Part shown: positions 5,343 through 55,370 of the stretch, piece after piece | Layout: each line of letters starts with the position of its first letter | How positions within the stretch are numbered: position 1 is the first letter of the stretch | Made by a program: the position numbers and the translations under genes | Origin: an uncultured Planctomycetota bacterium | GTDB lineage: Bacteria > Planctomycetota > PLA2 > JAEUHO01 | NCBI GenBank assembly: GCA_963752285.1 | Contig: CAVVXN010000002.1 | Span: 352,001-416,000, forward strand | Direction: 5' to 3' | Length of the DNA: 64,000 bases | Notes under the pieces: model-generated | The model's database searches: none | What the model was told of the DNA's origin: nothing | Seen by the model: the letters and a program-made list of their open reading frames with translations, nothing else

Positions 5343-5963
5343 TCAGCGGGCGTCGCTGGAGGACGACGACGTCGTCGTCGCGTGGTTCCGGGACGCGGGC
5401 CGCGCCGTCGTGTGGGTCTCGGTGCGGCGGCTGGCGATCGTGTGGTGCGCCGCCTGCGCCTGGGCGAAGCCCGCGCGCCGCACGGCTTCGACGAGCCGGG
5501 TCACCGTCGCCCTCCGCGCGTCGAAGTCGACGCGCGCGAGGGACGTGCTCTCGACGGCGATCCTGCGGACGCCCGGCACAAGGCCGAGCGCCGCGCGCAC
5601 GCGCGTGCTCGCGTTCTCGGGTCGCATGTCCACCTCGATGGCCAGGCTGCGTACCGGGATCACGGACGCCCCGTAGCCCAACGCGTGCACGGCGTACTCG
5701 AGCTGGGCGTCGGACGCCGTCCCGCGCGAGCGGACCACGACGGCCTCGTTCTTGAGTCGATCCACGTTGGCGTAGAGAACGCCGCGCACACGGCGCAGCG
5801 CCGCGGTCACCTCGACCGCGCACGGGCCTCACCCCATCCCGCTGAGCTCGAGCACCACCCTCTCGTTCGTGATCGGGTGCGTGCTGGTTCCCGCGCGCGC
5901 CGTGCCCGCGAGCGAGACGGCGACGAGGGCGGTGAACGTCGAGATCCAGGCCATGCGATTCAC
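5343..5963 (-). CDS. Exported tandem heavy-metal-associated (HMA) domain protein; candidate selenoprotein (in-frame TGA at 5829-5831, UxxC motif)
   Basis: GGAGG 7 nt before GTG 5963; signal peptide MNRMAWISTFTALVAVSLAGTARA; then VVLELSGMG-[TGA]-GPCAVEVTAALRRVRGV, which matches the HMA consensus GMxCxxC...V..AL..V.GV with TGA at the first Cys. The same frame continues into the 155-aa ORF, which holds a second, Cys-less HMA-like repeat. Confidence 0.78.
5802..5831 (-). promoter_or_regulatory. Putative bacterial SECIS element downstream of the in-frame UGA
   Basis: mRNA UGA-GGCCCGUG-CGCGGUC-GAGGU-GACCGCG: a perfect 7-bp stem (5802-5820) with a G-initiated 5-nt apical loop starting at the 16th nt after the UGA. 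Confidence 0.6.
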
Positions 5964-6260
5964 GGGGATCCTCCCGGAAGCGAGTTGCAAAGGTCGGGAC
6001 GGTACGACCCGTCGCCTCCTCGACGACGGGAAAAACCGGCCCCGCGGGAAGAATTCCCCACGTTTCCGTCCCTGCGTCCCGTGCCTGAATCGTTCCTTCG
6101 TACACGGAATCTGAAGAACCAGTCGGCACGCCGGTGCTCGAATCGCTACGGAGGCGTGATTCGTGCGCCTCGCGTGCCGCGCCGCATCCGGAGGCGCGGC
6201 GCCGGCGGGCCGGTCGTCCCGCCCGACGGCGGCGCGCGAACCGGGGCCATCGCCCCCGGG

Positions 6261-7273
6261 CTATACGGCGTCGGCGGACGGGGGTGCGGCGGACGACGTC
6301 GCGGAGGACGTCGGGCGGCGGAGGACGCGGCGCGGGGGCGCGGCGGGCGCGGCGGCGGGCGGTACGTCCGGGAGCTCCCGCGGGGGGGCGGGCGGGACGG
6401 CCGACGCCGTGCGCAGGAGGACCCGTCCCGGCGGGTCCCACGTGAGCGCGAGCACGAGCGGGAACACGGAGAGCGAGACGAGGAGCATGAAGCCCGCGAC
6501 GCTCTCGAGCGGGACGCCCAGCACGTCGTGCGCGACGCGCGCGTAGTCGTTCGTCAGCCCGAACGACCCGCTCTGCATGTACCACGCGCGCGCCGACGAG
6601 GTGAACGCGAGCCCGCCGGCCAGCGCCACGTTTCGTGCGACGAGGAACCACCCCAGGCACGCGTAGAGCGGACGTTCGGACTCGTGCTCCACCGCGTCGC
6701 CGGTACGGGCGCGCGCGAGGAACACGCCGGCGAACACGAGCTCGCCCAGGTGGCCCGAGAGCAGGAAGCCGAGCTGGCGCGCCGTCGGGAGGAACGCGAA
6801 GAGCGGCCACGCGGCGAGGAGCCCGATCGCGAGCCCGAAGAACCTCTTCGTGCGCCAGGCGAGGACCACGCCCGTCACCAGGATCGCCGCCACGAGCACG
6901 AGGATCGTGACGCTCTGCGGACGGTGGAACGCCGCGGCGTGTCCCCGGAGGCTGATGACGGGCCAGGCGGCGGCGCCCGCGTACCACGAGAACGCGACGT
7001 GTCCGGTCTCGTGGAAGAGCGAGCCGAGCAGCCAGCCCATGAGGCGGAGCCACGGCGCCATCGTGAAGAGGCTCGCCAGGGCCGCGCCCAGGGCCAGCCA
7101 CGGCCAGCCGACGTCCACCCGCCTCGGGGCGCGGACCGACCCGGGACGCCCGGCACGAGGCGCGCGCGGCGGGGGCCGGACGCGGGGGGCGCCACCCGGA
7201 GCTCCCCGCAGAGGCCGCACGTGGGACGGTCGTCGGGGTTGGGGTAACCGCAGCGGACGCAGGAGTAGCCCAT
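6261..7273 (-). CDS. Zinc-ribbon plus HExxH membrane protein (M50-like), split by an apparent 1-nt frameshift near 7171-7189
   Basis: MGYSCVRCGYPNPDDRPTCGLCGE (CxxC-x10-CxxC) lies in one frame and a multi-TM region with FHETGH in another; adding one base in the G6 run at 7184-7189 joins them. Confidence 0.6.
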
Positions 7274-7341
7274 TCCGGTCTCCATTTCGCCCATCGAGGC
7301 GCCTGGACTTGAGTCCCCGTCCCCCCCCCGGGGCGCGGCGC

Positions 7342-8031
7342 TCAGGGGGCCCGCGTGGCGCGGGCCTCGGCCAGGATCTCGGCGGCCCGGGAGGTACCGA
7401 GGCGGTCCGCGCCCGCGTCCAGGAGGGCGCGCGCCTGGGCGAGGGTACGGATGCCACCGGACGCCTTGACGCCGAGGCGGTGGCCCACGAGGCCCCGGAG
7501 CCGGCGTACGGCCTCCACCGAGGCGCCCGGCGGGCCGAACCCCGTCGAGGTCTTCACGAACGAGGCGCCCCCTCGCTCGGCGCACTCGGCGGCCCGGGCG
7601 AGGAGCTCGGGGGAGAGGAGCCCCGTCTCGAGGATCGCCTTCACGGGGCGGCCGTCCGCCGCCTCCACGACCGCCCGCACGTCGTCGATGACCTGTTCCC
7701 GGCGCCCGCTCGCCAGCCAGCCGATCTGCACGACGGCGTCGATCTCGTCCGCGCCCAGGCGGACCGCCTCGCGCGTCTCGAACGCCTTCACGCGCGGCAG
7801 GGTGCTCCCGAGGGGAAAGCCCACGACCGCGACGACGCGTACGGCCGTCCCCGCCAGAACCTCCGTCGCCACGGGGAGCCAGCACGGCGCGACGCACGCG
7901 CCGGCGACGCCCAGGGCCCGCGCCTCGCCGAGCATCTTCCGGATCCGCTCCTCCGTCGCGTCGGGCTGGAGCAGCGTGTGGTCGATGCGCGCCGCCAGCG
8001 CGTCCGGGTCGAGCGTCGGGTCCCAGGTCAT
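7342..8031 (-). CDS. deoC: Deoxyribose-phosphate aldolase
   Basis: IDHTLL, VVGFPLG, GADEID, VKAILET, FVKTSTGF, VKASGGIR and RLGTS motifs. Confidence 0.96.
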   Translation of the reverse strand: MTWDPTLDPDALAARIDHTLLQPDATEERIRKMLGEARALGVAGACVAPCWLPVATEVLAGTAVRVVAVVGFPLGSTLPRVKAFETREAVRLGADEIDAVVQIGWLASGRREQVIDDVRAVVEAADGRPVKAILETGLLSPELLARAAECAERGGASFVKTSTGFGPPGASVEAVRRLRGLVGHRLGVKASGGIRTLAQARALLDAGADRLGTSRAAEILAEARATRAP

Positions 8032-8085: not shown

Positions 8086-8511
8086 GTGGCGCGTCCCGCC
8101 TACCGCCTCCTCGACCACACCGCGGACCTGGCCTTCGAGGTCCAGGCGGAGAGCTGGCCCCGGCTCCTCGAAGCGGCGACCGCCGCGCTCGGCGACGTCA
8201 TCCTCGCCGAGACGGGGGACGCGCGCCGCGAGGCGCGCCCGCTCGACGTGCAGGGCGACGACCGCGAGGACGTCCTCGTGGCCTGGCTGGGCGAGATCGT
8301 CGCCCTCCTCGACGAGTGCGGCTGGCTCACGCGCGCGGCGAGGGTCGAGCGCGCGGAGGCGGGCCGCGCGACCGGCGTCCTCCTCGGCCGGTCGCTCGGG
8401 GACGCCGAGCCCGTGGATCGCGTGGTGAAGGCGGTCACGTATCACGACCTCTGCGTCCACGAGGGCGAGGGCCGCCGACCGTGGCGCGTGGCCGTGGTGC
8501 TGGACCTGTGA
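8086..8511 (+). CDS. Archease
   Basis: YRLLDHTADL, VKAVTYH and C-terminal VVLDL motifs; directly upstream of rtcB. Confidence 0.93.
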   Translation: MARPAYRLLDHTADLAFEVQAESWPRLLEAATAALGDVILAETGDARREARPLDVQGDDREDVLVAWLGEIVALLDECGWLTRAARVERAEAGRATGVLLGRSLGDAEPVDRVVKAVTYHDLCVHEGEGRRPWRVAVVLDL

Positions 8512-8524
8512 GGAGGGGGTGCCC

Positions 8525-9970
8525 ATGTCGCCCGAGTCCCCGCCGGCCGTGGAACGCGTGGACCGGTTCCGGTGGCGGATCCCGCGTAGCGGGGCGATGC
8601 GGACGGAGGGTCTCGTCTTCGCCACCGAGAGCCTGCTCCGGACGATGCAGGGCGAGCGGGCCCTCGAGCAGGTCCGAAACGTCGCGTGCCTGCCGGGGAT
8701 CGTCGGGCCGAGCCTCGGCATGCCCGACCTCCACTGGGGCTACGGCTTCGCGATCGGCGGCGTCGCGGCGTTCGACCCGGACGAGGGCGTGATCAGCCCG
8801 GGCGGCGTCGGCTACGACATCAACTGCGGGGTACGGCTGCTCCGGACCGACCTGGACGCGGCGTCGGTCGGCGGCCGGCTCGACGCGCTCGCCGACGCGC
8901 TCGTCGACGAGGTCCCCTGCGGCGTGGGCGCGGCGCAAGAGGACCTCCACCTCACGGGGCGCGAGATGGACGCCTGTCTCGCCGACGGGGCGGCGTGGGC
9001 CGTCCGGCGCGGGCTCGGCGTGCCCGAAGACCTCGAGCACGCCGAGGAGAACGGGCGCCTCGAGGGCGCGCGACCCGACGAGGTATCCGACCGTGCGAAG
9101 CGCCGCGGCGCGCGACAGCTCGGGACGCTCGGTTCCGGCAACCACTTCCTCGAGGTGGACCGCGTGGCGGAGGTCGAAGACGCCGAGGCGGCCCGTGCGC
9201 TCGGGTTGGTCGAGGGGCAGGTCGCCGTGCTCGTCCACTCGGGCAGCCGCGGCCTCGGCCACCAGGTGTGTACGGACCACCTGCCGACGATGAAACGGTC
9301 CGCAGAGAGGCACGGCATCGTGCTCCCCGACCCGCAGCTCGCGTGCGCGCCCTTCCGCTCGCCGGAGGCCGAGCACTACCTCGGCGCGATGCGCGCGGCC
9401 GTGAACTTTGCGTTCGCGAACCGGCAGGCGATCGCGGCGGGCGTGCGGCGCGCGTTCGACCGCGTGTTCGGGGCGGCCGGCGTCCTCGCGCAGGTCTACG
9501 ACGTGTGCCACAACATCGCGAAGGTCGAACGGCACGTCGTCGGCGGCCGCGAACGAGACCTCGTCGTGCACCGCAAGGGCGCGACGCGCGCGTTCCCTCC
9601 GGGGCACCCGCTCACGCCGGTCGCGTACCGGGCGGTGGGGCAGCCGGTGATGGTCCCGGGCGACATGGGCCGGTACTCGTTCGTGCTCGTCGGCACCGAG
9701 GGGGCGTGGAGGGAGACGTTTGGCTCCTCGTGCCACGGCGCGGGCCGCCTCCAGAGCCGCACGCGCGCGCGGAGGGAGACGCGGGACCAGGACGTGCGCG
9801 GCGACCTCGAACGACGCGGGATCCGCGTCCGCGCCGCGAGCCGCCGCACGATCGACGAGGAGCACCCCGGCGCCTACAAGGACGTCGCGGAGGTGGTGGC
9901 GGTGGTGGAGGGCGCCGGGCTCGCGCGTCGGGTCGCGCGCCTCGAGCCGATGGCGGTCGTGAAGGGCTGA
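8525..9970 (+). CDS. rtcB: RNA-splicing ligase RtcB
   Basis: MPDLHWGYG, GGVGYDINCG, LGSGNHF, HSGSRG, HN, HRKGA and CHGAGR motifs; AGGAGG 8 nt before ATG 8525. Confidence 0.97.
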   Translation: MSPESPPAVERVDRFRWRIPRSGAMRTEGLVFATESLLRTMQGERALEQVRNVACLPGIVGPSLGMPDLHWGYGFAIGGVAAFDPDEGVISPGGVGYDINCGVRLLRTDLDAASVGGRLDALADALVDEVPCGVGAAQEDLHLTGREMDACLADGAAWAVRRGLGVPEDLEHAEENGRLEGARPDEVSDRAKRRGARQLGTLGSGNHFLEVDRVAEVEDAEAARALGLVEGQVAVLVHSGSRGLGHQVCTDHLPTMKRSAERHGIVLPDPQLACAPFRSPEAEHYLGAMRAAVNFAFANRQAIAAGVRRAFDRVFGAAGVLAQVYDVCHNIAKVERHVVGGRERDLVVHRKGATRAFPPGHPLTPVAYRAVGQPVMVPGDMGRYSFVLVGTEGAWRETFGSSCHGAGRLQSRTRARRETRDQDVRGDLERRGIRVRAASRRTIDEEHPGAYKDVAEVVAVVEGAGLARRVARLEPMAVVKG

Positions 9971-19422: not shown

Positions 19423-20583
19423 TCACGCCCCGTTTGGCCCGGTCCTGCGAATGCGCGCGATCGCCTCGACGACGACCCGACGGGCCTCGTCCACCTCCGC
19501 CTCGGTCGTGAAGCGCCCGAGGCCGAACCGAACGCTCTGGTCGGCCGTCCGCTTCGGGAGGCCCATCGCCGCGAGCACGTAGGAGGGCTCGAGCCCCGCG
19601 GACGCGCACGCCGAGCCCGTCGCCATGGCGACCGAGGGCACCGCGAGGACGAGCGCCTCGCCCTCGACGCCCTCGACCGAGAGCGCCGACACGTTCGGCA
19701 GGCGGTGGCGGACGTCGCCGAGCACCGCGACGCCGGGCGCCGCGTTCGCGATGCCGTCTTCGAGCCGGTCGCGGAGCGTCGACACGCGCCGCGCGTCGTC
19801 GGCTCGTCGCTCGCGGCAGATCTCGGCGGCGCGCCCCATGCCGACCGCGCCGGGGAGGTTGGGGGCGCCGGCCCGCAGGCCGCCCTCCTGGCCCCCGCCG
19901 TACAGCAACGGCGCGAGGCGGACCCGCGGTCTCCGGCGGACGTAGAGGGCGCCGACGCCCATCGGACCGTGCATGCGGTGGGCGCTCAGCGAGAGGAGGT
20001 GGACGCCCATGCGACGCACGTCGAGCTCCACCCACGCCGCGGCCTGCGTCGCGTCGGCGTGGAACGTCACGCCCCGCGCGGCGGCGAGGTGGCCCACCGC
20101 CTCGACGTCCTGGAGCGTCCCGACCTCGGCGTTCGCGACCTGGACCGACACCAGCGCCACCTCGCCGTCGAGCGCCCGTTCGAGCGCCGCGAGGTCCACG
20201 CGCCCGACCGAGTCCACGCCGACGAAGGTCACCGGTACGCCCTGCTTCTCGAGCGCGCGGGCGGCGTCGTGGACCGCGCGGTTCTCGACCGCGCTCACGA
20301 CGACCCGTTCCCCGGCGCCGCGCGCGCGGACGCGGCCGAGGACGGCGAGGTTGTCGGCCTCCGTGCCGCCCGACGTGAATACGATCTCGCGCGGCTCGGC
20401 GTGCACGAGGTCGGCGACCTCGGCGCGCGCGAGCTCGAGCGCCTTCTCGGCGTCCCAGCCGAACACGTGGTGCGGGCTCGCGGGGTTCCCGAACCGGCCG
20501 CCCAGCCACGGGTCCATGGCCCGGGCGACGTCGGGATCGAGGGGCGTCGTGGCCGTGTGGTCGAGGTAGATCCGGGTCGTCAC
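19423..20583 (-). CDS. IscS/NifS-family cysteine desulfurase homolog with the PLP-binding Lys replaced by Arg
   Basis: IYLDHTATTP, FGNPAS, FTSGGTEADN, DATQA, GGGQE, GSACAS and RFGLGRFTT identify the family; the SxHK motif reads SAHR (codon CGC, 19975-19977). Confidence 0.9.
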   Translation of the reverse strand: MTTRIYLDHTATTPLDPDVARAMDPWLGGRFGNPASPHHVFGWDAEKALELARAEVADLVHAEPREIVFTSGGTEADNLAVLGRVRARGAGERVVVSAVENRAVHDAARALEKQGVPVTFVGVDSVGRVDLAALERALDGEVALVSVQVANAEVGTLQDVEAVGHLAAARGVTFHADATQAAAWVELDVRRMGVHLLSLSAHRMHGPMGVGALYVRRRPRVRLAPLLYGGGQEGGLRAGAPNLPGAVGMGRAAEICRERRADDARRVSTLRDRLEDGIANAAPGVAVLGDVRHRLPNVSALSVEGVEGEALVLAVPSVAMATGSACASAGLEPSYVLAAMGLPKRTADQSVRFGLGRFTTEAEVDEARRVVVEAIARIRRTGPNGA

Positions 20584-20724
20584 GCCCTGAGACTATCGCC
20601 GGCGGGCCGCGGTCCCCTCGGCGTCGCCGGGCGCGCGCGGTCCCTTCCGGCGGCCGGTATCATCCCCGGTGTACGCGCCCGGGCGCCCGATCCCAGGCGG
20701 AGCGCGCCCCAGAGGAGTCCGACC

Positions 20725-21057
20725 TTGTCCGTGATCGTCCTCACCACGAAGGCGGCCCAGAAGGTCCGCGAGCTGATGAAGCAGCCCGAGCAGCGGGATG
20801 CGAAGGGCCTCCGCGTCCGCGTCGTGGGCGGGGGGTGCTCCGGGCTCTCCTACCAGCTGGCCCTCGAGCGCGACGCCGAGCCGACCGACCGCGTCTTCGA
20901 GTCCGAGGGGATCTCGATCTTCGTGGACCCGAAGAGCGACCTCTTCGTGCACGGCACCGAGATCGACTATCAGGAGTCCCTGATGGGCTCGGGGTTCCAG
21001 TTCAAGAACCCCAATGCCACGGGGTCTTGCGGCTGCGGCTCCTCGTTCTCGGCGTGA
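20725..21057 (+). CDS. A-type Fe-S carrier (IscA/HesB/ErpA family)
   Basis: GGGCSG and CGCGSSF motifs; AGAGGAG RBS before TTG 20725. Confidence 0.95.
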   Translation: MSVIVLTTKAAQKVRELMKQPEQRDAKGLRVRVVGGGCSGLSYQLALERDAEPTDRVFESEGISIFVDPKSDLFVHGTEIDYQESLMGSGFQFKNPNATGSCGCGSSFSA

Positions 21058-21067
21058 GGGACGCGCC

Positions 21068-21709
21068 ATGGGCGCGCTCCAGCACTTCCTCGAGCGGGCC
21101 GCCGCCGACCACATCGAAGCGTTCGATGCGTGGTTCCCGGCCGGCTTCGACTGGGCGCGGCTCTGCGGCGACGTGCCCCGCCTCGCGCGCGAGGGCGGCG
21201 TTGCGACGGAGGGGCTCCCCGACGAGGACCTCGTGAAGATGGCCCGGGCCGTCTTCCGGGGCGCGCACCTGTTCACGCTCGCCGTGCTCGCGGCGGGAAG
21301 CGAGGGCCGGGGCGATCCCCAGGACCTCCTCTCCCGTCTCACCTCGCCGCCCGACGAGGAGGTCGAGGAGCACTTCCTCGCCCTCGCGGAGGAGCTTCTC
21401 CCGAGCGTCGAAGCGCGGATCCCGATCGAGACGTCCGGCGCGGAGCAAAGCGCTCCGCCCAAGGACGACGACGAGGGCGTCGACGAGGCCGAGGCGGCGA
21501 TCCGCCGCGCGGTGGCCCTCGTCCGCGCGACGGCGCCCGCCGTCGAGCACGTCCTCGCGAACGACGAGAGCCGCGTGTTCGCGCGCGCGGGAGAGACCGC
21601 GGGCGTGCTCTGGGCCCTCGCGCGGGTCGCGGCGGCGCTCGCGGCGCTGCGGTGGATGGCGTCGGAGCGCCTCGAGGAAGACTGGCCGCGTCTCGACCTC
21701 GCGGGCTGA
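21068..21709 (+). CDS. Hypothetical acidic, helical protein
   Basis: Fills the gap between iscA (10 nt) and trxB; protein-like composition and GC3-rich codons; no family recognised. Confidence 0.65.
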   Translation: MGALQHFLERAAADHIEAFDAWFPAGFDWARLCGDVPRLAREGGVATEGLPDEDLVKMARAVFRGAHLFTLAVLAAGSEGRGDPQDLLSRLTSPPDEEVEEHFLALAEELLPSVEARIPIETSGAEQSAPPKDDDEGVDEAEAAIRRAVALVRATAPAVEHVLANDESRVFARAGETAGVLWALARVAAALAALRWMASERLEEDWPRLDLAG

Positions 21710-21746
21710 CGGAGGTGGGGTAGCATCCCCGCCGCGGAGGGCATCC

Positions 21747-22718
21747 ATGACGAGCGACCGGGTCGAGAAAGTCACGATCATCGGAAGCGGTCCGGCGGGC
21801 TGGACCGCGGCGATCTACGCGGCGCGCGCCGCCCTGGACCCCCTCGTGTACGAGGGCGCGCCCTCGCAGCAGATGATCCCCGGCGGGCAGCTGATGTTCA
21901 CGACGGAGGTCGAGAACTACCCCGGCTTCCCCCACGGCGTGGACGGCAAGGAGATGATGGGGCTGTTCCGCGAGCAGGCCGCGCGTTTCGGTACCCGCAT
22001 CGTGACGGACGACATCGCGCACTGCGACCTCTCGGAGCGGCCGTTCCGTCTGCGGAGCCTCGAGGGCCAGGAGATCCTCACCCACACCGTGATCATCGCG
22101 ACGGGCGCGAAGGCGAAGTGGCTGAACCTCGAGAACGAGCAGCGACTCGCCCAGACGGGCGGAGGCGTCTCCGCGTGCGCGGTGTGCGACGGCGCGCTGC
22201 CGGTGTTCCGCGACCAGCACCTGGTGGTGGTCGGCGGTGGCGACACCGCCATGGAGGAGGCGCACTATCTCACGAAGTTCGCGGGCAAGGTCACGGTCGT
22301 CCACCGTCGGGACGCGTTCCGCGCGAGCCAGATCATGCAGGACCGCCTCCTCGCGAGCCCGAAGGTCGAGGTGGCCTGGAACAGCGAGGTGACCGAGGTG
22401 TTCGGCGAGGACCGGATCTCCGGGGTCGAGCTCACCGACACGAAGACGAGCGCGAAGCGACAGGTGGACTGCCGCGGCCTGTTCATCGCGATCGGCCACG
22501 AGCCGAACACGCGGTTCCTCGAGGGCCAGATCACGACCGACGAGCAGGGCTACATCGTTCTGCCCGACCCCGCGCGCACCACCACGAACGTGAACGGCGT
22601 CTTCGCCGTGGGCGACGTGACGGACAAGGTGTACAAGCAGGCGATCACCGCCGCTGGCATGGGCTGCCGCGGCGCGCTCGACGCCGAACGCTGGCTCGCG
22701 GCGGCCGGGGTGCACTGA
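21747..22718 (+). CDS. trxB: Thioredoxin-disulfide reductase
   Basis: IIGSGPAG, GGQL..TTEVENYPGF, GVSACAVCDG, GGGDTAMEEA, HRR and QAITAAGMG motifs. Confidence 0.97.
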   Translation: MTSDRVEKVTIIGSGPAGWTAAIYAARAALDPLVYEGAPSQQMIPGGQLMFTTEVENYPGFPHGVDGKEMMGLFREQAARFGTRIVTDDIAHCDLSERPFRLRSLEGQEILTHTVIIATGAKAKWLNLENEQRLAQTGGGVSACAVCDGALPVFRDQHLVVVGGGDTAMEEAHYLTKFAGKVTVVHRRDAFRASQIMQDRLLASPKVEVAWNSEVTEVFGEDRISGVELTDTKTSAKRQVDCRGLFIAIGHEPNTRFLEGQITTDEQGYIVLPDPARTTTNVNGVFAVGDVTDKVYKQAITAAGMGCRGALDAERWLAAAGVH

Positions 22719-22755
22719 CCCGGGGGCCGCCCCGCGCGCGGGCGGGTCGGGGGGC

Positions 22756-23970
22756 TCAGGAGGCGGGCGCGACCAGGAACACCTTTCCCTGGTCGAGCGA
22801 GACGACGTAGAGCTCGCCCTGGTTGTCCTCGCCCATCGAGCAGGCGCCGGCGACCTTCGCGAGCGTCCGCCAGTCCTTCGCCTGTCCGCTCGCCACGTCG
22901 ATCACGTACACGGAGCCGCGTGCGTAGTCGCCGAACAGGTACTTGCCCTGGAGCGCCGGGACGCGGCTGCCCCGGTACACGTAGCCGCCCCAGCCCGCCG
23001 TGACGTCCGGGTCCGGGCCCCGGACCCAGTCGAAGAACGACTTCGCGAACGAGGCGGCCGACACGTTCTGCGGCATGGGCTCGAGCGGACGGCTCCCCTC
23101 CATGTAGGGCCAGCCGTGGTTCTTGCCCCGCTCCACCTTCACGACCCACTCGTGGCAGCCCTCGCCCTTCGAACCCGGCTCCGTGGTCCAGAGGGTGCCC
23201 TGCGCGTCGAACGAGAAGCGCCACGGGTTGCGGAACCCGTAGGCCCAGATCTCGCGTCGTACGCCGTTCGCGGTGGCCCAGGGGTTGTCCGAGGGGATCC
23301 CGTAGGCGAGCCCCGGCTGGGGGTGGTCCACGTCGATCCGCAAGAACTTGCCCAAGAGGGAGGTCGGGTTCTGGGAGGTCAGCGTCGCCGCCTCCTTCTG
23401 GTTCCCGTTGTCGCCCGTGCTGATGTAGAGCATGCCGTGGGGGCCGAAGGCGAGGCAGCCGGCGTTGTGCACGGCGGTCGTCTTGGGGATGACGAGCAGG
23501 TCCTTCTCGGAGGCCGGGTCGGCGGCGCCGCCCGTCGCGTGGAACTCGGCCACGACGATCTCGAAGCCGCCCGAGGCGGCTTGGCGGACGTAGTCGACGA
23601 AGAACCGTCCGTTCTGGGCGGCGGCCGGATGGAAGGCCATCCCCAGGAGGCCGCCCTGCATGCGGGGGAAGACCTTGGCGGTGATGTCGAGGAAGACGGC
23701 CGGCTGCGGGGCCGGCGTCTGGCCCCTCGGCTTCGCGATCCGCTTCACGCGCCCGACCTGCTCCAAGACGTAGAGGTCGTCCGATCCCTGGGGACCGGGC
23801 ACGAGGCCGAGGGGCGTCTCGAAGGTGAGGCCCGGGTACGCCTCGATGACGCGCGCCCCGGCCACGGCGGGGGGGTCGCCCTCGGCCGAGGCGGGACGCG
23901 GCGTGGCGGCGATGAGACCCGCGATCGCGAGGAGGGATCCGAGCCACAGCGACGGTCTGGCGTGCTTCAT
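22756..23970 (-). CDS. Exported glucose/sorbosone (PQQ-dependent sugar) dehydrogenase family beta-propeller
   Basis: Signal peptide; GLLGMAFHP, HNAG.LAFGP.G.LYISTGD, GKFLRIDVD, EIWAYGFRNPWR and YLFGDY motifs. Confidence 0.9.
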   Translation of the reverse strand: MKHARPSLWLGSLLAIAGLIAATPRPASAEGDPPAVAGARVIEAYPGLTFETPLGLVPGPQGSDDLYVLEQVGRVKRIAKPRGQTPAPQPAVFLDITAKVFPRMQGGLLGMAFHPAAAQNGRFFVDYVRQAASGGFEIVVAEFHATGGAADPASEKDLLVIPKTTAVHNAGCLAFGPHGMLYISTGDNGNQKEAATLTSQNPTSLLGKFLRIDVDHPQPGLAYGIPSDNPWATANGVRREIWAYGFRNPWRFSFDAQGTLWTTEPGSKGEGCHEWVVKVERGKNHGWPYMEGSRPLEPMPQNVSAASFAKSFFDWVRGPDPDVTAGWGGYVYRGSRVPALQGKYLFGDYARGSVYVIDVASGQAKDWRTLAKVAGACSMGEDNQGELYVVSLDQGKVFLVAPAS

Positions 23971-24080
23971 GGTGTCCTCCGAGCGCGGCATCCTACTCCT
24001 CGCGGGGGGAGACGCGACCGAGGTCCCGGCAAACCGTCCGGAGGGAGCGCAGGCGCGGTATCGTCCGAGGTCCGGGCCCG

Positions 24081-24515
24081 ATGAACTTCGACTTTGCCAG
24101 CGTTCTGGTCTTCTCGGTCGCCGCGGGCCTCTTCGTGGTCGTGAACCTGCTCGTGGGGCGGCTCCTCCTCCGGCCCCGGAGCACCGACATCGGGTCCAAG
24201 CGCAGCATCTACGAGTGCGGCGAGCCGACCGTGGGGCGGGCGTGGATCCGCTTCGACATCCGCTTCTACACGATCGCGCTCATGTTCGTGGTGTTCGACG
24301 TCGAGGTCGCGCTCCTGTTCCCGTGGGGCGCCGTGTACCGCGACCTCGTCCAGTCGGGGGCCGGCCTCCTCGCGTTCGTGGAGGCGCTGACCTTCATCGT
24401 GATCTTGTCCGCGGGCCTCGCGTACGTGTGGGCGCGCGGCGACATCGAGTGGACCCCCCAGCCGACCGCCCGGCCCGGCGCGGCGCCCGGGCGGGAAGGA
24501 GACGTCGATGCCTGA
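24081..24515 (+). CDS. nuoA: NADH-quinone oxidoreductase subunit A
   Basis: [19 protein letters not shown] and LFPW motifs. Confidence 0.96.
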
Positions 24516-25125
24516 GCCGGTCGACCCCGCGCTCGACGCGGAGCTCCGGTCGCAGGTCGTGCTGACGCGCCTCGACCAGCTGAAGGACTGGGGGCGGCGG
24601 AACGCGCTCTGGCCCATGTCCTTCGGGCTCGCGTGCTGCGCCATGGAGATGATGGCCACCGCCGCCACGAAGTACGACCTCGACCGCTTCGGCGCCGGCG
24701 TGTTCCGCGCGTCGCCGCGGCAGAGCGACCTGATGATCGTGGCCGGCACCGTCACCCACAAGATGGCGGCGCGCGTGAAGCGGCTCTACGACCAGATGCC
24801 CGACCCCAAGTACGTGATCGCCATGGGCGCGTGCACGGTGGGGGGCGGGCCCTACGTGAAGTACGGCTACCACGTCGTGCAGGGCGTAGACCTGATCGTG
24901 CCCGTGGACGTGTACCTGCCTGGCTGCCCGCCCCGTCCGGAGGCGCTGATCGACGCGATCCGCAAGCTGCAACGCCGCATTCAGGAACGCGGCGGGTCCT
25001 CGCTCCCCGTGGAGCGTGTCGAGGAGGCCCGGACGCGCGCGCGCGACCTCGCCGCCACCGGGCGCCGGCCGGGTGAGGCGCCGATCGACGTTTCCGGCGC
25101 GGCGCCCGACGAGGGGGCGGCGTGA
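24508..25125 (+). CDS. nuoB: NADH-quinone oxidoreductase subunit B
   Basis: [21 protein letters not shown] and [10 protein letters not shown] motifs. Confidence 0.97.
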
Positions 25126-25694
25126 TCGCGGACGACGACCGCCGCGCCGCCGCGGGCGACGACCCCGTGGCGGTGGACGCCCGCGACCGGATCGCGGCGG
25201 CGTTCCCCGACGCCCTGGAGGAGACGGTCCTCGGCGGCCGCCACCCGTTCCTTCGCGTGAAGGCCGACCGGCTCTTTGACGTGTGCCGGTTCCTTCGCGA
25301 CGAGGCGGGCTACGAAGGCTGTCACCTCGTCACGGGCGTGGACCAGGGCCCCGAGGAGGGGACGATCGACGTCGTCTACCACCTCGTTTCCTGGTCGCGG
25401 CGTCCCGACGACGCGTACCGCCGTCGTCCCGAGAAGAACGACCCCTGGCTCGCGCTCGTGGTCCGTGTGCCGCGGGACCGCCCCGAGGTGCCCTCGGTTG
25501 CGTCCGTCTGGACGGGCGCGGACTGGCACGAGCGCGAGACGTACGACCTGGTCGGGGTGGTGTTCACGGGGCGCGACGACCTGCGGCGCATCCTCCTCCC
25601 CGAGGACTGGCCGGGCCACCCGCTCCGCAAGGACTGGACGTTCCCGCCCTCCTACCACGGCGCGCCGATCATCCCGCCCGAGGCCCAGCCATGA
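25122..25694 (+). CDS. nuoC: NADH-quinone oxidoreductase subunit C
   Basis: [11 protein letters not shown] and [18 protein letters not shown] motifs. Confidence 0.95.
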
Positions 25695-54479: not shown

Positions 54480-55370
54480 ATGGAGGGCACGTTGACGGCG
54501 GCGACGCGTCCGGCGGACCCGAGGGCGCGGCGGCGCGCGATCTGGATCCGGCTGGTGGTCGCGCCGATCTCGCTCGCCGTCGTGGTGGGCGTGCTCTTCC
54601 TGCACGACCGCACCGGGAACCCGCTCCCGACCGACGTCCTCCTCGCGGTCCTCGGCGCGGGGGCCGCGTTCGAGCTCGCGCGCGTGCTCCGGACCGGCGG
54701 CGTGGAGGCGGACCTCGCGGTCGCGACGGTGGCGAGCGGCCTCACGGCGGGCGTCGGACTCTTCGCGCCCTTCGATCCCGCGGCGCGGATGGCGGCGCGG
54801 GCGATCCTGCCCGTCGCGGCGCTCACCGCGCTCCTGTTCCTCCGGCTCCTCGACCTCCGGCGGGCGTCACTCGCCGGACTCTCGGCGACGATCCTGCCGA
54901 TCGTCTACGTCGGCCTCCCGCTCGGCTTCGCCCGCGAGATCGACGGCACGCAGGACCTCGCCCGGTGGCTCGTGTACGTCGTGGTCGTGGCGAAGGCGAG
55001 CGACATCGGCGGCTGGGTCGTCGGGAAGCCGCTCGGCCGCCACAAGCTGATCCCGGCCGTCTCGCCCGGGAAGTCGTGGGAGGGCCTCGCGGGCGGCCTC
55101 GCGCTCTCCCTCCTCGCCGCGGTCCTGCTCCCCGAGCCGCTCGCGATCGGCGCGACCGGATGGTCGGTCGCGAAGCGCGCGGCATTCGGTCTGCTGCTCG
55201 GCGTGGCCTCCGTCGCGGCGGGTCTCACGCACAGCGCGTTCAAGCGGCGGGCCGGCGTCAAGGACTCCGCGCCGCTGATCCCCGAGATGGGCGGGCTGCT
55301 CGACATGGTGGACTCGATGCTCCTCGCCGCGCCGGTCGCGTGGCTCTGGTTCGCGGTGGGCCTGGGCTGA
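54480..55370 (+). CDS. cdsA: Phosphatidate cytidylyltransferase
   Basis: SDIG...G..LGRHKL.P.VSPGKSWEG and S.FKR.AGVKDS..LIP..GGLLD..DS motifs. Confidence 0.93.
   Translation: MEGTLTAATRPADPRARRRAIWIRLVVAPISLAVVVGVLFLHDRTGNPLPTDVLLAVLGAGAAFELARVLRTGGVEADLAVATVASGLTAGVGLFAPFDPAARMAARAILPVAALTALLFLRLLDLRRASLAGLSATILPIVYVGLPLGFAREIDGTQDLARWLVYVVVVAKASDIGGWVVGKPLGRHKLIPAVSPGKSWEGLAGGLALSLLAAVLLPEPLAIGATGWSVAKRAAFGLLLGVASVAAGLTHSAFKRRAGVKDSAPLIPEMGGLLDMVDSMLLAAPVAWLWFAVGLG

Follow-up and report, generated by a model that had tools for sequence, protein, structure and literature searches.

Selenocysteine (Sec, U in one-letter code) in place of cysteine is already established bioinformatically in HMA-type metal-binding proteins. 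A "mercuric transport protein MerP" is listed among the selenoproteins of the Global Ocean Sampling (GOS) data in a table within the available part of PMC2398784, and the NCBIfam models NF041115 and NF045683 describe further selenoproteins of this kind. The remark in an initial annotation that Sec-for-Cys MerP-like proteins had been predicted before is therefore borne out. Literature searches gave general lists of Sec-containing HMA, MerP and ATPase proteins and no account of a tandem-HMA protein with a U-G-P-C motif from Planctomycetota, and Table S9 of PMC4807772 contains no HMA selenoprotein. A protein of this description is predicted here from a 64,000-nucleotide (nt) stretch of DNA of an uncultured Planctomycetota bacterium (GenBank assembly GCA_963752285.1, contig CAVVXN010000002.1, positions 352,001 to 416,000), referred to below as the window. 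The gene lies on the minus strand, positions are given in window numbering, and the G+C content of the window is 73.8%. The encoded protein very probably belongs to the class of Sec-containing HMA metal-binding proteins that this earlier work defines, as a new and lineage-specific member.

Judged from its sequence, this is very probably a full-length selenoprotein gene misannotated as a fragment, with a UGA codon at the metal site that specifies Sec. The best explanation, to which we assign a probability of roughly 0.8, is an exported 206-residue protein of HMA fold in which UGA45 is read as Sec within a soft-metal site. A UGA at the first cysteine of a CxxC-type site, its conservation in orthologues, a conserved structured block and N-terminal truncation of the database entries together form the standard bacterial Sec signature. 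N-terminal truncation combined with alignment to cysteine is used as a criterion for selenoprotein detection in the accessible portion of PMC13188914.

The mechanical open reading frame (ORF) list places the gene at 5343..5810 on the minus strand, with a GTG start and a 155-residue product. The frame of this ORF stays open upstream across a single TGA (5829-5831) as far as a GTG at 5963-5961, and a Shine-Dalgarno-like GGGAGGA at 5975-5969 precedes that GTG with a spacer of 5 nt. The listed start at 5810, the upstream frame through the TGA, the GTG at 5963 and its ribosome-binding site are all present where the initial annotation had put them. The elements of the extended gene are as follows.

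5343..5963, minus strand: full coding sequence of the predicted selenoprotein, 206 residues plus the TGA stop at 5343-5345, from the frame reading and continuous periodicity of G+C at third codon positions (GC3)
5969..5975, minus strand: Shine-Dalgarno-like GGGAGGA, read from the sequence
5892..5963, minus strand: putative signal peptide of the general secretory pathway, residues 1-24, read from the sequence
5829..5831, minus strand: in-frame TGA, predicted Sec45, first ligand position of G-M-G-U-G-P-C, from profile, structures and three orthologous loci

The readthrough translation contains one in-frame UGA, within ...VVLELSGMG-U-GPCAVEVTAALRRVRGV..., and falls into four parts: a hydrophobic N-terminus, HMA domain 1, a cysteine-free HMA-like domain 2 and a Thr/Ser/Arg-rich tail. 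The G+C content at the three codon positions is 0.57/0.57/0.95 in the 44 codons 5' of the TGA and 0.71/0.58/0.95 3' of it. The 5' leader ahead of the ribosome-binding site has a flat profile (0.60/0.60/0.67) and no periodicity. Since GC3 has the same value of 0.95 on both sides of the TGA, the coding frame is continuous across it. Scanning the whole window for TGAs with coding-type periodicity on both flanks gave seven sites, among which 5829-5831 is the sole sense-type site if a plain gene boundary at 55368 is set aside. Neither the window nor the three related loci described below yielded another sense-type candidate for a TGA-interrupted gene, the remaining sites being antisense-frame patterns or gene boundaries, and the window-wide scan gave no indirect sign of Sec use from further interrupted genes. 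TGA ends 25 of the 29 family-supported ORFs of the window, this gene included, which rules out a global reassignment of the codon. Because TGA is an ordinary stop in this DNA, any recoding has to be local.

Members of the close family stand in the databases as truncated proteins. A word-indexed protein search returned the gene's own 155-residue annotation and two metagenomic proteins, both of which start at the residue right after the motif region (VTAALRRVRGV and VAAALRRVRGV). An exhaustive comparison with 1.84 billion representative proteins yielded 1,170 matches at E <= 0.001, 65 of them at E <= 1e-10. The best 150 of the 1,170, the two earlier matches and five readthrough translations made here formed a census set of 157 proteins, 16 of which, the gene's own annotation included, start with the post-motif segment by pattern census. 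P0016 and P0069 are two more fragments, with starts further in than that segment. A profile search with the family alignment scored 8,000 candidates and retained 13 proteins at E <= 1e-10, all 13 of them 99-155 residues long and devoid of the domain-1 motif. They comprise this gene's own annotation and 12 further family members, among them the NCBI-sourced proteins of two of the contigs described next (L001 and L003), and none of them is a full-length Cys form of the close family. P0160 is the L003 translation begun at a post-TGA start. The false starts chosen by gene callers vary among relatives (VTAAL..., VRGV..., MRRVGY...).

Two relatives, P0056 and P0047, are full-length, with signal-peptide-like N-termini, and have neither Sec nor Cys at the column of interest: P0056 has Trp (SGMTWVGC) and the motif of P0047 is cysteine-free. 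TGG (Trp) is one step from TGA, and the AALRRVRGV segment is relaxed in both proteins, as expected if the constraint of a selenocysteine insertion sequence (SECIS) is gone.

A single-protein scan of genome contigs yielded 599 pattern matches and no relatives. In a locus search by alignment, a 20-sequence set (A1) proved too divergent, and an 8-sequence set (A2) led to three loci, L001, L002 and L003, in metagenome-assembled genomes (MAGs) of Planctomycetota. Their products are 43-44% identical to the protein over its whole length, and tblastn identities are 51, 50 and 47%, respectively. Every locus has dut, anmK, an Na/Ca exchanger and/or bacA around the gene, and the loci are therefore orthologous by context. 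All three carry TGA at the same column, and in each of them the frame stays open upstream, has a start codon and encodes a hydrophobic N-terminus. The motifs read LQLSGMG-U-GPCAVDV in L001, LQLSGMG-U-GPCAAEV in L002 and LELSGLT-U-GPCAAEV in L003. Scoring Cys against TGA in tblastn matches, as the initial annotation had proposed, gave TGA in three out of three loci at 47-51% identity, and the codon is not private to this assembly. A private TGA with no conserved hairpin would, according to that annotation, have pointed to a nonsense mutation or error.

The RNA downstream of the TGA is conserved as well, and its elements are listed here.

5777..5831, minus strand: conserved block, the TGA and 17 codons, to 52 nt downstream, the predicted bacterial SECIS (bSECIS) region, with 42/51 nt invariant in four loci
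5802..5820, minus strand: hairpin 1, 7-bp stem and loop GANGU, from folding, with a U-A pair changed to C-G in L002 and L003
5779..5801, minus strand: hairpin 2, 9-bp stem and loop CG(U/G)GU, from folding, with G-C/G-U changes only

Hairpin 1 (CGCGGUC-GAGGU-GACCGCG, 5820-5802), noted in the initial annotation as a 7-bp stem that starts 8 nt after the TGA, is present as described, with a folding energy of -11.9 kcal/mol matched by one in 200 shuffles. Hairpin 2 follows it directly at 5801-5779, with a 9-bp stem, the loop CGUGU and -15.6 kcal/mol. The annotated GTG start (5810-5808) straddles the loop and the 3' arm of hairpin 1. Perfect stems of at least 7 bp with a loop of 3-9 nt that has G in its first two positions and starts 15-37 nt on follow 3,969 of 127,880 window positions (3.1%), and the fold of the complete 81-nt region is no more stable than those of its shuffles (z 0.24). 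Such hairpins are frequent in this GC-rich DNA, and one of them by itself is weak evidence; the weight of the argument comes from conservation in relatives.

When the four genes are aligned by codon, the 17 codons that follow the TGA have 42 of 51 nt (82%) and 10 of 17 third positions invariant. The 42 codons upstream of it have 32 invariant positions out of 126 (25%; third positions 5/42), and the 108 codons further downstream have 80 out of 324 (25%; third positions 17/108). Where all four genes encode the same amino acid, the third base is constant too in 8/14 codons inside the block versus 8/32 outside. The synonymous-site excess and the sharp block boundaries point to a constraint on the RNA besides that on the protein. 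RNAalifold recovered both hairpins from the four loci, and the eight individual hairpins range from -11.1 to -15.6 kcal/mol. Hairpin 1 has one compensatory pair, U-A in this gene and L001 and C-G in L002 and L003, a change that alters two amino acids. The sole variable site of its loop GANGU is a third codon position. Variation in hairpin 2 consists of G-C/G-U exchanges, and its loop is CGUGU in all but L003, where it is CGGGU.

The bSECIS model set out in the available part of PMC13188914 has a loop of 3-9 nt, a stem of 4-16 bp, a spacing of 16-37 nt and a minimum free energy of -7.5 kcal/mol or lower, and its loop has a G within the first two positions and G or U next to it. Hairpin 2 fits every one of these published terms: its 5-nt loop lies 36 nt after the UGA and has G and then U/G at loop positions 2-3. 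The initial annotation had proposed hairpin 1 as the SECIS-like element. That hairpin is indeed kept in the relatives, compensatory change included, and departs from the model as published there in its spacing only; hairpin 2 is the better fit.

The protein evidence also crosses the TGA. The Pfam HMA profile (PF00403) covers residues 38-97 with positions 2-61 of its 62 (E 1e-12) and a score of 48.7 bits, the cutoff being 24.8, and this match spans the codon. The 206-residue readthrough protein, with the TGA at the first Cys of the HMA motif, is as the initial annotation described it. U45 aligns with the first Cys of GMxCxxC both in this profile and in solved HMA proteins. The domains were delimited as follows.

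5658..5867, minus strand: HMA domain 1, residues 33-102, beta-alpha-beta-beta-alpha-beta, with beta1 (33-41) upstream of the TGA, from profile, model and structures
5469..5654, minus strand: HMA domain 2, residues 104-165, fold kept and CxxC lost, site DMRPENAS, from alignment and model
5346..5468, minus strand: C-terminal tail rich in Thr/Ser/Arg/Ala, residues 166-206, from the sequence and with low model confidence

An AlphaFold2 model built from a 27-row alignment has a mean predicted local distance difference test (pLDDT) score of 84, with values of 93-98 over residues 31-170 and low confidence for residues 1-30. The model contains two beta-alpha-beta-beta-alpha-beta domains, with U45 in the beta1-alpha1 loop of the first and C48 at the start of helix alpha1. 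As beta1 precedes the TGA and alpha1 runs from residue 48, the 155-residue ORF would lose beta1, the metal loop and part of alpha1. Foldseek places the tandem HMA domains of CopA from B. subtilis (2rml, 1p6t) first, and these align over residues 34-166. Single-HMA structures also match, namely MerP (1osd, TMt 0.92; 1afi, TMt 0.85) and CopZ, with root-mean-square deviations of 1.0-1.5 A. The N-terminus, read by eye, resembles a signal peptide, as had been claimed: it has an Arg-containing n-region, a hydrophobic core and ARA ahead of G25, and the N-termini of the three orthologues are similarly hydrophobic.

The putative metal site of domain 1 is UxxC, and domain 2 has no Cys in this gene, L001 and L003. 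The HMA fold with U-G-P-C at the beta1-alpha1 loop argues for a selenolate/thiolate soft-metal site in domain 1. On the strength of fold and motif, which do not specify the metal, this domain most likely chelates metal. The corresponding site of domain 2 reads DMRPENAS here, MDRQGG in L001 and MHGGGS in L003, and L002 keeps MGCSGC. The CxGC of domain 2 is kept by several metagenomic relatives as well as by L002, and the domain-1 Sec site is kept in all four loci.

From these features we infer Sec insertion, export and metal binding along the following lines. Translation would begin at GTG 5963, and UGA45 would be decoded as Sec by SelB and Sec-tRNA(Sec) in response to an mRNA element in the approximately 50 nt immediately downstream. 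This signal would consist of the two adjacent conserved hairpins, either of which is a candidate SelB site. The N-terminal signal peptide would carry the product across the cytoplasmic membrane, where the U45-G-P-C48 selenolate/thiolate pair at the beta1-alpha1 loop would most likely bind a soft metal ion, for example Cu(I) or Hg(II). HMA domain 2, which has lost its CxxC in this genome, probably has a structural or docking role.

Several points weigh against this reading. No selA, selB or selD is found among the 40 ORFs scanned in the 64 kb, a span too short to be informative, and a tRNA scan of the window and the three loci returned none. Nothing of the Sec machinery was found in the locus flanks. 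There is no Rfam match at the gathering threshold over the whole window, nor at E <= 10 over 5650-5950 (301 nt). The loop of hairpin 1 lies 15 nt after the UGA, against the 16-37 nt published in the part of PMC13188914 at hand, and A follows the loop G. Part of the conservation of the block could come from the peptide GPCA.EV.AALRRVRGV combined with strong codon bias. The four DNA sequences are syntenic and belong to one phylum, and the shared TGA and the single covarying pair may reflect few independent events. Finally, no metal-resistance genes are adjacent; the neighbours, dut, anmK, an Na/Ca exchanger, deoC and a gene for an HExxH membrane protein, do not form a mer operon.

The last of these points bears on a different function for the same selenoprotein, that of a selenol/thiol redox protein built on the HMA scaffold instead of a metal chelator. 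The active site of thioredoxin is CGPC, which U-G-P-C mirrors. The Gly-Pro spacer (U-G-P-C, 5820-5831) is invariant in all four orthologues. Of 376 G[MLIVF]xCxxC motifs scanned in 151 proteins, a set of search relatives that includes the window's own two annotated fragments, not one has GP between its cysteines. Most known bacterial UxxC selenoproteins are, in addition, redox proteins according to the available parts of PMC9312934 and PMC13188914. Against this, the fold is that of metal-binding HMA proteins, which also supply every best match in the family and structure comparisons, and the Sec-HMA proteins of NF041115 are curated as metal-binding. The GGC-CCN codons of the spacer also lie inside the conserved RNA block, so that GP may owe its constancy to the RNA rather than to protein chemistry. 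A redox function in place of metal chelation is accordingly considered unlikely, although it deserves to be taken seriously.

A more speculative variant, which we regard as rather doubtful, would make the protein a distinct exported selenoprotein in which UGPC has been grafted onto the HMA fold for selenol-based periplasmic redox or metal transfer. It might be coupled to the upstream HExxH protein, for instance by loading or stripping its metal, and might use an unusual two-hairpin bSECIS.

It is very improbable that the TGA is a true stop that separates a 44-residue peptide from an independent 155-residue protein begun at GTG 5810. This arrangement matches the current annotation, including the NCBI-sourced records of the L001 and L003 contigs, and TGA is the main stop codon of the window. 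The HMA profile and the predicted fold nevertheless cross the codon, and the shorter product would be left without beta1, the metal loop and the signal peptide. GTG 5810 is itself embedded in hairpin 1, with no Shine-Dalgarno-like motif noted ahead of it by eye, and the start points vary among relatives, as they do when gene callers take the first start past a stop.

A UGA recoded to a residue other than Sec has similarly poor prospects. Insertion of Cys at Sec codons is possible in some bacteria, and a conserved UGA with a conserved structure does not tell which residue goes in. Cys might be inserted by a SelB/SECIS-dependent tRNA variant, or Trp by structure-stimulated near-cognate readthrough, and P0056, a full-length protein, does have Trp at the Sec column. 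On the other side, the position is the classic one for Sec or Cys, that of the first metal ligand in a CxxC-type motif, and the nearest NCBIfam model for four out of four orthologues is a selenoprotein family. Sec machinery is moreover known in Planctomycetes, four of which have full Sec-insertion gene sets in the part of PMC4807772 that is available.

That the TGA stands for a lost Cys codon, through nonsense mutation, a pseudogene lesion or an assembly error, has next to no credibility. TGC and TGT are one substitution away from TGA, and the source is an assembled contig whose annotation covers the 155-residue remainder only, but the TGA at the same column in three independent loci of 47-51% identity largely refutes this reading. 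The open frame and coding periodicity upstream in all loci also speak against it, and so does the truncation of all 13 profile-search proteins with no full-length Cys form of the close family among them.

The exported Sec-HMA protein remains the preferred reading, and the surroundings of its gene can be described as follows. An HExxH membrane protein (SLFHETGHV) is encoded directly upstream on the same strand in three of the four loci.

6264..7457, minus strand: upstream HExxH membrane protein, longest ORF, approximately 300 nt upstream on the same strand, given as context only

Its counterparts lie at 8521-9621 (plus strand) in L001 and 8215-9624 (plus strand) in L003, and in L002 its place is taken by an ABC-transporter ATPase encoded on the other strand. 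The HExxH proteins are 60-61% identical between genomes, which is above the conservation of the HMA protein, and have no Pfam or NCBIfam match. The block at 19426-25694 of the window and positions 5-7027 of L001 have iscS-like, trxB, glucose/sorbosone dehydrogenase-like and nuoA/B/C(D) genes in common, and there is therefore long-range synteny with this Planctomycetota MAG. By its shared gene context, the window very probably derives from a planctomycete. Elsewhere in the window, an RtcB-family RNA ligase ORF (8429-9967, plus strand) matches best the C-terminal part of an "intein-containing RtcB" model, with 645.7 bits against a cutoff of 1150, which suggests an RtcB relative without an intein.

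At least a dozen relatives, together with this gene, stand in public protein sets as headless fragments. Recognition of the predicted Sec codon would restore a complete exported two-domain protein. It would also bring a Sec-HMA family that is lineage-specific and chromosomally anchored into the small group of selenoproteins whose selenium serves as a metal ligand rather than in redox catalysis, and would extend that group to Planctomycetota. With four aligned sequences and a sharply bounded block, the locus is a natural test case for the choice that SelB makes between two neighbouring hairpins in a bacterium of high G+C content.

Among the closest described systems is NF041115 (UxxU_metal_bind), which likewise has an HMA fold with Sec in the metal motif and is the top NCBIfam model for all four orthologues. 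The scores are 60.1 bits for the protein described here and 78.5, 78.7 and 77.7 bits for those of L001, L002 and L003, all below the cutoff of 95. NF041115 is a single domain of 74 positions with two Sec residues (UxxU). The present protein differs by its single Sec (UGPC) and by having a signal peptide, another HMA domain and a tail of low complexity. The model NF045683 describes a MerT/CopZ fusion-like selenoprotein; it scores 39.6 bits against 375 and aligns through its HMA part only (positions 150-230 of 235), which places the protein outside that family.

MerP (TIGR02052; 1afi, 1osd) is likewise an exported HMA protein with a two-ligand motif at the beta1-alpha1 loop and matches structurally with TMt 0.85-0.92. 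Its family score is 53.5 bits here and 51.5-75.3 bits for the orthologues, against a cutoff of 92.55. The protein described here differs from MerP in its tandem domains, and merR, merT and merA are not among the neighbours at its locus, where cop genes are absent as well.

CopZ/Atox1 copper chaperones have the fold and the motif position in common with it, with a score of 58.6 against a cutoff of 85 bits for NF047957. CopZ consists of one cytosolic domain and carries no signal peptide. In CopA, too, two HMA domains lie in succession, and UxxC in an HMA domain is already on record for an ATPase. In CopA they form the cytosolic N-terminus of a pump, whereas the protein here is free-standing and predicted to be exported, and its domain 2 is cysteine-free. 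The unusual feature of the protein described here is the thioredoxin-like UGPC motif.

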